From Cyanobacteria bacterium auto_48_18 (GTDB lineage Bacteria; Cyanobacteriota; Vampirovibrionia; Obscuribacterales; Obscuribacteraceae): a stretch of 64,000 bases of DNA. Positions within the stretch are counted from its first letter, which is position 1. Every line of letters begins with the position of its first letter. Below the pieces are notes generated by a model. The model saw only the letters and a program-made list of their open reading frames with translations, searched no databases and was not told where the DNA came from. The stretch lies in contig JAVHQC010000020.1 of the NCBI GenBank assembly GCA_036170915.1, forward strand, positions 96,001 through 160,000, given 5' to 3'. A program made the translations under genes and the position numbers. This document shows positions 9,838-42,751 of this stretch, in pieces.

Positions 9838-9865
9838 AAACTGGATGGATATCCATCTATGGTTT
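9838..9865. repeat. Dispersed intergenic palindrome, copy 1
   Basis: aaactggatggat|atccatctatggttt; perfect 14-bp core at 9844-9857. Confidence 0.8.
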
Positions 9866-10061
9866 TGAATATGCCTTCAGCCACGTTGCCATTATGTGTT
9901 CTTTAGTAATGGCTAAATCTTAAGAAATATAGCTAGAGCACGGTTTCTACCACTATTGGTCTATACACTTCTGTTGTGAGCAATCTTCCTGTTTGCGCAG
10001 AAGATTGGCTCCACTACACATTTTAATTGCGAGTGAATCTTCGTAATAGGAGGATAGAACC

Positions 10062-10373
10062 TTGGCTACTGCATCTGCAAACAAGCTTCAACTGAAACCC
10101 TTGGCTGACCGCGTTGTTTTGAAGAAACTTGACGCTGAAGAAAAAACATCAGGTGGCATTGTCCTTCCTGATACTGCCAAAGAGAAGCCGCAGCAAGGCG
10201 AAATCTTGGCCGTAGGTCCAGGCCGCGTCGATGACAAAGGCACCCGTACACCAATGGAAGTAAAAGTTGGCGACAAAGTTTTGTTCGCTAAATACTCCGG
10301 TACTGAAGTGAAAATCGAAGGCGTTGAATATTTGATCATGACCGAGCGCGACATTCTCGCTGTTGTCGGTTAA
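10062..10373 (+). CDS. groES: Co-chaperonin GroES
   Basis: [21 protein letters not shown] and KYSGTEVK motifs; AGGAGG SD with TTG start. Confidence 0.98.
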
Positions 10374-10449
10374 TTCGATTTTTGACCTGTTTTAAGTACA
10401 CAACTCATTAAAGAAAACCCTATTCCAATAGGAGAGGAAAAACGAAAGT

Positions 10450-12078
10450 ATGGCTAAGCAAATTGTTTATGGCGAACACGCACGTCGCGCTCTTGAGCGT
10501 GGTCTAGATCACGTTGCAAATACAGTTAAACTGACATTGGGACCAGCCGGTCGCAACGTAGTTTTGGAAAAGAAATTCGGCGCTCCACAAATCATCAATG
10601 ATGGCGTTTCGATTGCTAAAGAAATCGAACTCGAAGATCGTTTGGAAAATGCCGGCGCTCAATTGATCCGTGAAGTTTGCTCAAGAACTAACGACAATGC
10701 TGGAGACGGCACTACAACAGCCGCTGTTCTCGCTCAAGCAATGGTAAAAGAAGGCCTGCGCAACGTTGCGGCTGGTGCTAATCCGATGGTTCTCCGTCGT
10801 GGTATTCACAAAGCTGCTGAGATGGCCGTAGCTGAAATCAAAAGAATTGCCAAGCCTGTTGAAGGCAAAATCGAGATCACTCAAGTAGCCACAATCTCCG
10901 CCGGTAACGACGAAGAAACAGGCAAAATCATTGCTGATGCAATGGAGAAAGTTGGCAAAGATGGCGTAATCACCGTTGAAGAATCCAAATCTCTCACAAC
11001 TGAACTTGAAGTTGTAGAAGGTATGCAATTCGACAAAGGCTACGTTTCCGCTTATTTCGTCACTGATGGCGAGAAAATGGAATCCGTATTAGACGAGCCA
11101 TACATCCTCTGCATCGACAAGAAAGTAAACTTGCTTGCCGACCTAGTGCCAGTGCTTGAAAAAGTAGCTCGCGCTGGTCGTCCATTCATGCTTATTGCTG
11201 AAGATGTTGAAGGCGAAGCTCTTGCCACTCTGGTTGTAAACCACCTGCGCAAAGTTCTTCCTTGCTGTGCTGTTAAGGCTCCAGGATTCGGCGATCGTAG
11301 AAAAGAAATGTTGAAAGACATCGCTATTCTGACTGGCGGTCAAGTTGTATCTGAAGAAGCCGGCACCAAGCTCGAAAACGTAACTGTTGAAATGCTCGGT
11401 AAAGCTCGTCAAGTTCGCGTCAACAAAGACAAGACCACAATCGTTGCTGGCAACGAAACCAAAGCTGAAGTTGAGAAGCGTATTTCCGTAATCAAACGTC
11501 AGATTGAAGATTCCGATAGCGAGTTCGACAAAGAAAAACTGCAAGAGCGTTTGGCTAAATTGGCCGGCGGAGTTGCTGTAATCAAAGTCGGCGCTGCTAC
11601 CGAAACCGAACTCAAAGATCGCAAACTGCGTTTCGAAGATGCTTTGAACGCAACTCGCGCTGCTGTTGAAGAAGGTTATGTTCCTGGTGGTGGTACTGCA
11701 CTTCTCAATGTTTCCAAAAAATTGGAAAAAGAAAAAGAGAAATTGCATGGTGACGAGCGCACCGGATTTGAAATCGTTGTCAAATCTTTCGAAGCTCCTG
11801 TACGTCAAATTGCCGACAACGCTGGCCTTCCTGGCGAAGTTGTAGTTGAGCGTGTTAAAGAGCAGAAAGAAGGCTTCGGCTTCAATGCTATGACCTTCGA
11901 GTACGTTGACATGGCTAAAGCAGGCATCATCGACCCAGCTAAAGTTGAGCGTTGTGCCATCCAGAATGCTTCTTCCATCGCTGCAATGTTCCTCACCACA
12001 GAAGCTCTTGTGGTAGACGTTGTAGACGAAAAGAAACACATGGGCATGCCACAAGGCGCCGGAATGGGTGACTTCTAA
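10450..12078 (+). CDS. groEL: Chaperonin GroEL
   Basis: [26 protein letters not shown] and [20 protein letters not shown] motifs. Confidence 0.99.
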
Positions 12079-12129
12079 GAATAGGCCCTGCGCCTGTAAT
12101 TAGAATTCATTTGCTTAAGCAATAAAGAA

Positions 12130-12156
12130 AAGGGCGGGGATTAAATCCTCGCCCTT
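12130..12156. terminator. Probable bidirectional intrinsic terminator after groEL
   Basis: Stem aagggcggggat / atcctcgccctt; the A-rich run before it gives a U-rich tail on the minus strand; lies between convergent genes. Confidence 0.7.
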
Positions 12157-40607: not shown

Positions 40608-40624
40608 TTGCTCTTAGAAGTTGC

Positions 40625-41677
40625 GTGAGCATTAAAAAGACCTCGTCCAAATTCAGCAAAGCGCCAACAGGCAAGTTTGCTGCCGGACAGTCTGCTGCGA
40701 AAAAAAACAGCAATAAAGGCTCTGATGCCATTGCTAAAGCCGCTCAATCTGCCCGCACAGCGGGTGCTGGGCGGCTTCCGGCTAAGTATGCCAGCAGCGC
40801 AGGCAGTGCTCCAGGTGCTGCAAAAGCTGTACGCAACAAGCCGAAACCAGCTAACACTCCCTTTCAAAGGCTAACCGAGATCGTAAAGTGGGTGGATCTC
40901 GTCATTGAAGTGCTTGATGGCCGCTTGCCTGAAACCACCAGACATCCTGCATCGGAAGAAATTTTCGGTAATAAGCCCAGAGTACTGATTTTTTCTAAAG
41001 CCGATTTGGCCGACTCAACTAAGCTGCGAGTCTACGTTAAGGCTGCGGGCGAGAAGCCTCACAATGGTCCGCCGGAGAAGTTGTTGATCTTAGACTTAAA
41101 ATCAATGGCCCACAAAAATACCTTTATCGAGGCCGCCCTGGCAGTCACCGCAGAAAAAAGAGCGGCACTTGCCAAGAAAGGATTGCTTGAGCGGCCTATG
41201 CGCGCTTGTGTGGTTGGCATTCCGAACGTGGGCAAATCATCTTTGATCAACTGGTTTGTCGGACGCAAGAAGGCTAAGACCGGTGATTCTCCTGGAGTCA
41301 CAAGGGGCACACAGTGGATTCGTGTTCATCCACAACTAGAATTGCTCGATACCCCGGGCATTTTGCCTGCCAATTTGTTTTCGACTGAAGAAAGACAAAG
41401 GCTGGCTCTCCTCAATTTGCTACCTGCCGACGGATATGACAATGTCGAAATAGCTAAATTCGGTTTGATGTTAATGAAAAAGTACTACTCTGGTATGCTC
41501 GAAGCATATCTACCAGGCCTGTCAGGCATTGAAGACGGGCTTGACTACATTGCTGAGAAGAAGCACTATTTAGGTAATGGTGGCAGGCTAGACCACTATC
41601 GAGCGGCAACTATCTTTCTGCGCGATTTACGAGCAGGAAAATTAGGCGACGTTACTTTCGATAATCTCACTGTGTAG
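40625..41677 (+). CDS. rbgA: Ribosome biogenesis GTPase RbgA/YlqF
   Basis: Circularly permuted GTPase: SKAD, GIPNVGKSS, PGVT and DTPG; rplS-rbgA-rnhB synteny. Confidence 0.92.
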   Translation: MSIKKTSSKFSKAPTGKFAAGQSAAKKNSNKGSDAIAKAAQSARTAGAGRLPAKYASSAGSAPGAAKAVRNKPKPANTPFQRLTEIVKWVDLVIEVLDGRLPETTRHPASEEIFGNKPRVLIFSKADLADSTKLRVYVKAAGEKPHNGPPEKLLILDLKSMAHKNTFIEAALAVTAEKRAALAKKGLLERPMRACVVGIPNVGKSSLINWFVGRKKAKTGDSPGVTRGTQWIRVHPQLELLDTPGILPANLFSTEERQRLALLNLLPADGYDNVEIAKFGLMLMKKYYSGMLEAYLPGLSGIEDGLDYIAEKKHYLGNGGRLDHYRAATIFLRDLRAGKLGDVTFDNLTV

Positions 41678-41694
41678 CAAAGTGCGGGGCAGGA

Positions 41695-42552
41695 ATGGCA
41701 AAAGTAGAAGCTCCAGCAAAGCCGCCCTTACACAAACTTCTTGCCTTCGATACCAAACTTTTAAATAAAGCGCAAAAATCAAATCAGGCTCTTGTGGGAA
41801 AAACTGGTCAGCCTGTTAATAAAAACTTGAGCAGTCGTCTACTGGCCATGCAGGAACACCAGACTCAAATTTTTAAAGGGTCGTCGTCAGGTATCATCGG
41901 CGTAGACGAAGTTGGCCGCGGCTGTCTTTCTGGGCCGGTGGTAGCTGCAGCTGTAATGCTGCCGCAAATTGAGAAAAAATCTAAATTGGCTCAAGAACTG
42001 GCGAATCTGGACGACTCGAAAGCTCTAAAAGCTGAAGTCCGCGAAGAACTTGCAGCAGTGCTTCGCGCAACGTGCCATTACGCAGTTGGTGAAGCTTCGC
42101 CGGAAGAAATCGATCAGATCAATATCTTGCAAGCAAGCTTGCTGGCCATGCGGCGAGCTTTAGACAATCTCTTTCTTCAATTATCGTTTGGACGTGAGCA
42201 ACTGCTTTTGTTAGTTGATGGCAATCAACGTATCAAAGAAATAGAACTGGAGCAAATTACCGTAATCCAGGGTGACAGCCATTCAGCCTCCATTGCCGCA
42301 GCCTCAGTACTTGCGAAGGTCTATCGCGATTCTTTCATGCGCGATTTGTCAGAAAGCTATCCGCACTACAACTGGCATAGCAATAAAGGCTATGGTTCAA
42401 AAGTCCATCGTCAAGCCATTGCGGAACACGGACTAACTCAGTGGCATCGCCTGAGTTTCGGCCCCTGTAAAGACCCGCAGAGTGGCTTAAATGATGACCT
42501 TGAATTGGACGATGATAGTTCAGGAACCGAATTGGAATTAAGCGCGAGATAG
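41695..42552 (+). CDS. rnhB: Ribonuclease HII
   Basis: GVDEVGRG, DSK, VDGN, SIAAASVLAKV and NKGYG motifs. Confidence 0.96.
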   Translation: MAKVEAPAKPPLHKLLAFDTKLLNKAQKSNQALVGKTGQPVNKNLSSRLLAMQEHQTQIFKGSSSGIIGVDEVGRGCLSGPVVAAAVMLPQIEKKSKLAQELANLDDSKALKAEVREELAAVLRATCHYAVGEASPEEIDQINILQASLLAMRRALDNLFLQLSFGREQLLLLVDGNQRIKEIELEQITVIQGDSHSASIAAASVLAKVYRDSFMRDLSESYPHYNWHSNKGYGSKVHRQAIAEHGLTQWHRLSFGPCKDPQSGLNDDLELDDDSSGTELELSAR

Positions 42553-42715
42553 CTTAGATTTTCGCCTGCTAAATTGAATGGATTTGTGAGCAAAAACTGT
42601 TCTAGATTTGCACGGTTTTTAGAGTGAGTTTTGCCACTTTACACTCAGTTCGGAAGATTAGAAGTGTAGCTCTGTCTTGATCTTAACGCGGCTAAGATTG
42701 TAGGTGTGCCGTTAA

Positions 42716-42751
42716 TTTAAAACCTGGATGGATATCCATCCAGGTTTTAAA
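42716..42751. repeat. Dispersed intergenic palindrome, copy 6 (perfect 36 bp)
   Basis: tttaaaacctggatggat|atccatccaggttttaaa. Confidence 0.95.

Follow-up and report, generated by a model that had tools for sequence, protein, structure and literature searches.

Why should six loop-less palindromes of one family, flanked by genes that share no pathway, lie together within 33 kb of a bacterial genome and be nearly absent from the rest of it? The question is raised by a stretch of 64,000 nucleotides from Cyanobacteria bacterium auto_48_18 (assembly GCA_036170915.1, contig JAVHQC010000020.1, positions 96,001 to 160,000), here called the window, for which an earlier note had proposed an undescribed element of the REP (repetitive extragenic palindromic) kind, an RNA hairpin or a chromosome-organising protein site. 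The answer suggested here lies in a gene which that note missed, at 37581–38639, whose product derives from a transposase of the insertion sequence (IS) IS1595 type and which, in our view, explains the palindrome family. As the palindromes surround this gene, and come and go with it among relatives, they are, judged from the sequence, very probably the binding sites of its protein. The features on which the argument rests are:

9837–9864, no strand: palindrome copy 1, flanked by a GGDEF gene and groES; 9 of 14 positions paired
18803–18828, no strand: palindrome copy 2, perfect over 26 bp, between divergent accC-like and hbd-like genes
26920–26947, no strand: palindrome copy 3, perfect over 28 bp, with convergent flanking genes
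32427–32454, no strand: palindrome copy 4, after coaBC; 9 of 14 pairs in the window, perfect over 34 bp in G009
37377–37404, no strand: palindrome copy 5, the upstream site of gene 37581–38639; 10 of 14 pairs, perfect over 40 bp in G009
37526–37552, plus strand: motif TTGAAC-N17-CGTT ahead of gene 37581–38639, a presumed promoter
37581–38639, plus strand: the putative cognate gene (352 residues), inside the field and behind copy 5; predicted IS1595-transposase derivative
42716–42751, no strand: palindrome copy 6, perfect over 36 bp, between convergent rnhB and a DnaJ-domain gene

The description given in the earlier note holds: the six copies are where it had placed them, three perfect over 26, 28 and 36 bp and the rest paired at 9–10 of 14 positions; all are intergenic, five follow a stop codon, copies 3 and 6 separate convergent genes and copy 2 divergent ones, and the neighbouring genes, besides having no pathway in common, differ between genomes. 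Spaced 5–9 kb apart, with centres at 9850/9851, 18815/16, 26933/34, 32440/41, 37390/91 and 42733/34, copies 1 to 6 have perfect arms of 7, 13, 14, 3, 3 and 18 bp, and their consensus, with up to three mismatches allowed, has four matches in the window as against none in 100 dinucleotide shuffles. When the whole assembly of this genome (G000; 4.94 Mb in 39 contigs, numbered C below, and 86% complete) was scanned with a position weight matrix (PWM), as the note had advised, the six copies ranked as the top six matches, all inside 33 kb, followed by one copy on contig C24; the near-absence of the motif elsewhere, which the note had set down as telling against its reading, is taken here as a clue rather than a refutation. 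With six of the seven best matches in 33 kb, the palindrome family is a local field and not a genome-wide repeat, and five of the six copies other than the one at the promoter lie within 30 kb of gene 37581–38639 (uniform P of about 2e-9).

Also sustained is the proposal that the dyad is kept as the sequence changes. Among 17 orthologous copies from three genomes, 15 of them distinct, 12 cells show double-sided changes as against 4.7 in shuffles, none of 500 shuffles being as high, although the copies are related, so that the shuffle result is not a probability. Pair 11/18 is unpaired in 7 of 15 copies although the motif is kept in both arms. As the note had stated, the family is neither HIP1 nor CIRCE, for which there is no match within the window, nor canonical parS, for which there is none anywhere in the assembly; nor was there any Rfam match across the window, any GTAG foot at the window copies or in the alignment of the 17, or any common flanking direct repeat or target duplication around the six sites.

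How are gene and sites distributed among close relatives? Five genomes of the same genus were compared (G003, G006, G007, G009 and G012). The gene and all six sites occupy orthologous places in G000, G006 and G009, whereas G003, G007 and G012 are syntenic over the region and yet have neither the gene nor any of the six sites. In these three genomes the copy 1 site is missing from a spacer some 55–65 bp shorter, copy 2, which has orthologous copies in G006 and G009, has none, and the spacers of copies 3 and 6, 127 bp and about 267 bp in the window, measure 25–34 bp and 35–39 bp without a palindrome. Site-bearing spacers exceed empty ones by roughly 55–230 bp, the extra DNA around the sites being unrelated between copies; the comparison of filled with empty sites proposed in the note gave, with G003, G007 and G012 as the empty reference, no fixed boundary. 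That all six sites are kept in G009 at a synonymous divergence above 1 argues for selection or constant renewal. Single motif matches in other congeners were dropped as codon coincidences within one conserved gene.

What kind of protein stands amid these sites? From the N- to the C-terminus, it comprises an IS1595-type zinc ribbon (cysteines C47, C49, C65 and C68; four Cys are invariant in the family) with a helix-turn-helix (HTH), an RRS-ETP-x(3)-PF motif, an acidic linker, a DprA-type winged helix at about residues 199–257 and a GVSRK helix. Residues 19–135 align with an intact IS1595 transposase of G003 (hhalign 99.1%, E 8.6e-19), whose C-terminus is matched by the C-terminal HG(V/I)SRKYLQxYL helix, while the region of the DDE core is taken up by a conserved KRSRETPARxHP motif, the acidic linker and the winged helix. 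The DDE core is absent from every family member examined (PF12762 in none of the ten G000 paralogues), and PF17782 (DprA_WH), above cut-off in the window protein (E 2.4e-11), is matched by all ten. The consensus helix LTMLEL of the family is that of the lineage's own DprA, and the winged helix of the paralogue on contig C8 is 51% identical over 55 residues to the DprA of the same genome. The predicted structure of the window protein has a pLDDT of 91, and the former DDE region is almost all-helical in confident models; when solved structures were searched for similar folds, the winged helix alone gave a match (best Z 10.0, root-mean-square deviation (rmsd) 1.4, 62 residues), the best Z for a natural winged-helix-less paralogue being 4.2 and a Mutator-type transposase reaching Z 3.0 at rmsd 7.6. 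These comparisons indicate that the gene is a transposase derivative that has lost its cutting core and gained a piece of DprA. Its ratio of non-synonymous to synonymous change (dN/dS) against G006, 0.14 compared with 0.01–0.08 for ten neighbour genes, points to a gene that is under purifying selection, and its protein changes fast, being 55% identical to the G009 orthologue where the neighbours are 92–98% identical.

The window gene is not alone. Comparing the proteins of three regions of clustered palindromes, which also shared large generic families such as kinases and response regulators, revealed a family of paralogues, ten of them in G000 next to a true DprA; the other copies are 21–40% identical to the window's protein and their loci are stable in relatives. 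In a FastTree phylogeny the clade of the window protein is sister to that of the C4 paralogue, and both have derived GAT-N-GAT arms. Among 50%-identity representatives there are at least 623 homologous proteins at E below 1e-30, and the closest Atlas clusters are unnamed Melainabacteria proteins. Relatives of the gene bear titles that are mostly Obscuribacterales or Melainabacteria, besides some other labels, so that the window probably belongs to that lineage. Of 36 genomes of the same family, 29 have full-length members (E below 1e-50); the 24 genomes of other families have none and yield only weak matches of DprA size. Five paralogues of G003 (L066, L068, L070, L072 and L074; 273–300 residues) have no winged helix and keep the promoter motif; some of these five have degenerate palindromes. 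G003 also holds three near-identical intact IS1595 copies of about 1.0 kb (L083–L085), whose terminal repeats are unlike the palindrome.

Does each of these genes then stand in a field of its own? Across Obscuribacterales, a palindrome lies within 420 nt upstream at 60 of 73 homologue loci, compared with 76 of 1130 random windows, the 73 being the loci with enough upstream DNA (6 of 79 were left out) and the related genomes not being independent. Extra copies of each locus's own 16-bp core within 10 kb number 69, as against none for the reversed core. In G000, several related loop-less intergenic families of about 28–30 bp have A/T-rich outer arms and a self-complementary 6-bp centre; eight YAGATTGAT copies, in four pairs, lie within 44 kb around the C4 paralogue, and 13 of 27 GTTAAC-centred copies lie on C8, within 50 kb of the C8 paralogue. 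Of the further genomes compared, G019 has 20 exact sites, 17 of them spread over 186 kb in the surroundings of two genes and three in those of a third, and G020 has 12 of 17 on the contig of the gene. The complete chromosome of G061 has 57 sites, and 24 of the 50 listed fall within 45 kb of three intact genes, each with its own palindrome variant, where 2.7 would be expected. A family-wide ancestral pattern gave a weaker picture: the high-count genomes (12–41 sites) all have a full-length gene (7 of 7), seven same-family genomes without it have 0–2 sites, and the 24 other-family genomes gave one match, while many gene-bearing genomes stand no higher than the control because their sites have diverged. 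The 13 pattern matches of G003 equal its control count of 13, yet 11 of them lie within 55 kb of a paralogue.

The other G000 families include at least six further ones, with centres GTTAAC, GATATC, GTGCAC/GTATAC, TCCGGA/TGCGCA/TTTAAA and TTCGAA, found for example at C8:7834-62016, C4:36672-80165, C29, C22 and C16:185370-185474; some are clustered at a paralogue and some dispersed, and since iterative PWMs merged related families, the family counts made with them are approximate. The CGCAGAGAAATTTTC family in G000 has no clear cognate gene. Three copies of an odd-centred 41-bp palindrome, CATATAACATTGTAATTACG-N-CGTAATTACAATGTTATATG, occur in G000 at C31:20915, C32:64759 and C29:139282, and at L147, L032, L069 and L168 perfect loop-less palindromes of 62–72 bp, unusually long for bacterial chromosomes, stand upstream of homologues.

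When would such a protein be made? The centre of copy 5 lies about 135 nt ahead of the motif at 37526–37552, and the general form of that motif, TTGAAC-N16/17-CGT(T/A), which we take to be of the extracytoplasmic function (ECF) sigma type, precedes 9 of the 10 G000 paralogues and 56 of 73 homologues. Its strict pattern has 35 matches in G000, 25 of them before genes: eight paralogues, comEC, comM, a gene for a ComF-type phosphoribosyltransferase, priA, xseA, dnaE, an ECF sigma gene and others that are unrelated. The motif also stands before yraN, and before comM in 22 of 26 relatives. We infer from this sharing a competence regulon, to which a second copy in the window would belong:

59890–59916, plus strand: second copy of the promoter motif, upstream of dnaE; same putative regulon, outside the palindrome field

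ComM itself is present in 34 of the 36 same-family genomes. According to PMC12012524, the DprA winged helix binds ComM and brings it to the site of recombination, and that of Helicobacter pylori DprA does not bind DNA; YraN nicks the displaced strand jointly with ComM (10.1101/2024.02.06.579203).

On this reading the N-terminal part of the transposase, the reader of terminal repeats in IS elements, would here read two arms of 11–12 bp around a 6-bp centre, the gene would be expressed together with the competence genes, and the winged helix would recruit ComM, and through it the YraN nuclease, as that of DprA does. At roughly even odds, we propose that the protein binds its sites as a dimer during competence and would load the ComM helicase there, biasing transformation-driven recombination in such a way that its locus retains the allele with the gene. 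The protein would be made only in cells already holding the gene, and sites would matter only near the gene, on the scale of a transforming fragment; since gene holders alone would make the protein, selection could act for nearby sites that either bar gene-less DNA from the locus or give an advantage to DNA with sites. ComM–YraN would be loaded or kept at the resident sites by bound protein, and gene-less DNA would fail to replace the locus or site-bearing DNA would win. What would the gene gain? Transformation is thought to cure chromosomes of mobile elements (PMC12378983). Self-preservation against such curing, to which we would give an even chance, seems the simplest selective account. Tentatively, and with less confidence, we see in these genes selfish chromosomal genes of a new class, in which the DNA-binding shell of a transposase exchanged its own nuclease for the hook of ComM–YraN, the host's helicase–nuclease for transformation. 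Each paralogue would write and police its own field, steer recombination in natural transformation over tens of kb so as to be beyond cure, and, with the borrowed machinery, renew its sites and occasionally move.

Several observations weigh against this proposal. Position 242 is His in the window protein and in its G006 and G009 orthologues, although it is Glu in 121 of 142 members, and this Glu presumably corresponds to the ComM-contacting Glu of Vibrio; the following Leu is retained in the window protein, and its His suggests that recruitment of ComM by the window copy may be poor. Of the nine G003 paralogues, five have no winged helix at all, 13 of the 73 homologue loci show no upstream palindrome, and in G026 the paralogues are preceded by a palindrome with no further copy inside 10 kb. 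Some G000 families are dispersed, with 2 of 29 CCGG/GCGC/TTAA-centred and 2 of 26 GTGCAC-centred copies near their own gene, on short contigs. The 35 strict promoter matches compare with 11 in a reversed control and include unrelated genes, and the motif is not directly upstream of dprA in G000. The direction of the bias, moreover, could be either to block or to favour integration, and of 64 indels between G000 and G006 only two touch a site, with one clear case of a gain at the centre.

How could sites come about and keep their symmetry? In a set of 90 different upstream sites, arm positions 8, 10 and 11 show a symmetry of 0.86–0.91 where independence predicts 0.28–0.33, despite almost no sequence conservation, and perfect arms as long as 36 bp occur whose outer sequences are unrelated; as these sites were pre-selected for at least 10 of 14 pairs, the inner symmetry is inflated, whereas arms beyond 14 are not. 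One G000 site, compared with G006, has a gain of 32 bp at its dyad centre, which doubles the hexamer and repeats the arm in inverted orientation; doublets 28–44 bp apart are common, and a site within a kinase gene arose by codon replacement with no indel. The symmetry and the centre gain fit template switching or break repair from the centre: breaks or template switches at a bound centre could copy one arm onto the other and so give rise to closely spaced doublets and to perfect palindromes that differ in length. In the contigs of three runs, none of the dyad centres had a joint.

Could the field instead be the functionless footprint of past hopping, left by miniature elements of the REP or MITE kind (MITEs being miniature transposable elements with inverted repeats) that a cis-acting transposase, now dead, or an intact IS1595 acting in trans, had spread? 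The IS1595 ancestry of the protein, the longer site-bearing spacers, the intact IS1595 copies in G003, the duplication of genes to new loci along with palindrome and promoter, and the doublets and shared asymmetric variants, which show copying, would all suit such an origin. We consider it unlikely, as no member has a DDE core, the six sites have no flanking duplication in common and sit in unrelated extra DNA, the terminal repeats of the intact elements differ from the palindrome, the in-gene site arose by substitution, all six sites persist in G009 at its high synonymous divergence, and the winged helix and the promoter would be left unexplained. Quite improbable, in turn, is an ordinary domesticated transcription factor of competence, with the upstream palindrome as an autoregulatory operator and the other copies regulating neighbours. 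A palindrome 30–140 nt ahead of the gene's promoter motif in most homologues, an intact HTH, purifying selection and the position of copies 1, 2 and 4 upstream of genes speak for it, but copies also lie between convergent genes and within coding sequence, the symmetry reaches far past the conserved positions, and the neighbours have no common pathway and differ between genomes because the sites, as we read them, follow the gene's position and not a regulon.

A further reading likens the system to ParB/parS or MatP/matS: a dead transposase would pair its sites and loop 30–190 kb around the gene into a chromosome domain. Transposases do synapse two ends, the symmetric sites are clustered 5–9 kb apart and a chromosome may have several private fields; yet the three fields of G061 lie at arbitrary distances from dnaA (0.45, 0.73 and 1.59 Mb), some genomes of the same genus are entirely without the field, the protein changes fast, and its promoter motif points to competence, all of which makes a looped domain more improbable still. 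Of the earlier note's chromosome-organising protein site, the protein site is likely, while the tie to origin or terminus does not stand: the syntenic region, itself without sites, is about 2.0 Mb from dnaA in the single-contig 6.7-Mb genome of G003. (G000 has no full dnaA and no ParB_N match, and the missing dnaA suggests that its origin region is unassembled.) Least probable by far, and hardly to be expected, is the note's RNA role, in which the palindromes serve as terminators in both directions or as hairpins that stabilise mRNA, their tie to the gene being a matter of history. The position of five copies after a stop codon, the folding of three at −18 to −24 kcal/mol, arms that end in A/T runs and a slight excess of G-U mismatches on the sense strand (41 versus 26) would agree with it, but copy 4 barely folds (−2.9 kcal/mol), pair 11/18 is often unpaired where both arms keep the motif, Rfam has no match, and neither the clustering around one gene nor the absence from syntenic relatives is explained.

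Reading the palindromes as sites of the gene's own protein also calls for comparison with known systems. REP sequences with their REP-associated tyrosine transposases (RAYTs), or REPtrons, are likewise short intergenic palindromes, often doublets, each family tied to the transposase-related gene that it flanks (PMC3733652). The window family differs in having no GTAG/CGTC foot and no loop, in numbering tens rather than hundreds of copies local to the gene (seven of the window variant, six in 33 kb, against a high genome-wide number), and in a protein without a recognised catalytic site whose origin is a DDE (IS1595) rather than an HUH transposase. The field gene is not a Y1 protein, and Y1_Tnp (PF01797) has no match in the 86%-complete assembly. 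The earlier note's REP-like element thus survives in its layout, a gene amid its own palindromes as in REP/RAYT, but not as a genome-wide family with a foot or a RAYT. With IS1595 (Pfam PF12760/PF12762) the family shares a homologous zinc ribbon, HTH and C-terminal HG(V/I)SRKYLQxYL helix; its DDE/RNase-H core is replaced, and neither terminal repeats nor a target duplication, 8 bp in IS1595, were seen around the gene. DNA uptake sequences are motifs of about 10 bp that occur genome-wide in thousands of copies and are read at the cell surface. In Neisseria and Pasteurellaceae they resemble the present sites as short motifs tied to transformation that arise in place, also inside genes, and are often palindromic in spacers (PMC2397512); the window sites are 28–36 bp long, few, local and paired with the gene of a cytoplasmic protein.

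To DprA (PMC12012524) the family is tied by the same Pfam winged helix, with its LTMLEL-type helix, and by a promoter motif in common with comM. It differs in fusing that winged helix to a predicted sequence-specific binder of duplex DNA instead of a Rossmann domain that binds single-stranded DNA, in having up to 10 paralogues per genome and, in the window copy, in the His for the conserved Glu. Like the sites of ParB/parS, MatP/matS, SlmA/SBS and Noc/NBS, the palindromes are symmetric protein sites confined to part of the chromosome, but they follow a mobile gene rather than origin or terminus, form several private fields and are patchy among congeners. The system resembles REP/RAYT in layout, uptake sequences in its tie to transformation and DprA in its hook, but departs from each in the features that define it; neither the protein family nor its palindromes were found described in the literature searched, which lay largely outside subscription journals.

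What would follow if the proposal were true? The known counter-measures of mobile elements against curing are crude and consist in the disruption of comM or of other competence genes, or in DNA degradation (PMC12378983). A protein that occupies sites of its own and makes use of ComM would amount to a manipulation of recombination that is local and addressed by sequence, and to a natural, address-coded module for targeting it; the curing hypothesis would become testable at one locus. The proposal assigns a protein to a class of loop-less palindromes that had no explanation, offers more than 100 protein–site pairs of differing specificity as a natural library, and gives evidence of a competence regulon among the uncultured, non-photosynthetic relatives of cyanobacteria. 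The window's own contribution concerns the DNA: the field is complete here, it and the gene are jointly absent from congeners, and the protein shows the His variant.

Some minor observations may be added. The locus G000:C23:45661-46355 and about 25 other promoters make up the putative ECF-sigma competence regulon. Three DUF6088/AbiEi-like HTH paralogues in G000 (C15:59451, C22:30499 and C35:228255; two were scanned) carry the promoter motif and are possibly a second selfish or regulatory family of that regulon. At 42785–42800, about 55 nt to the right of copy 6, the window has a half promoter motif, TTGAACTTT, also found in G009, which may be what decay has left of a copy of the region upstream of the gene. 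Upstream of groESL, positions 9860–10062 contain no CIRCE match. Two tandem repeats complete the picture: one of 16-bp units in a spacer at 5883–5958, and one of 21–24-bp units within an NlpC/P60 gene at 28141–28207, whose units vary in related contigs.

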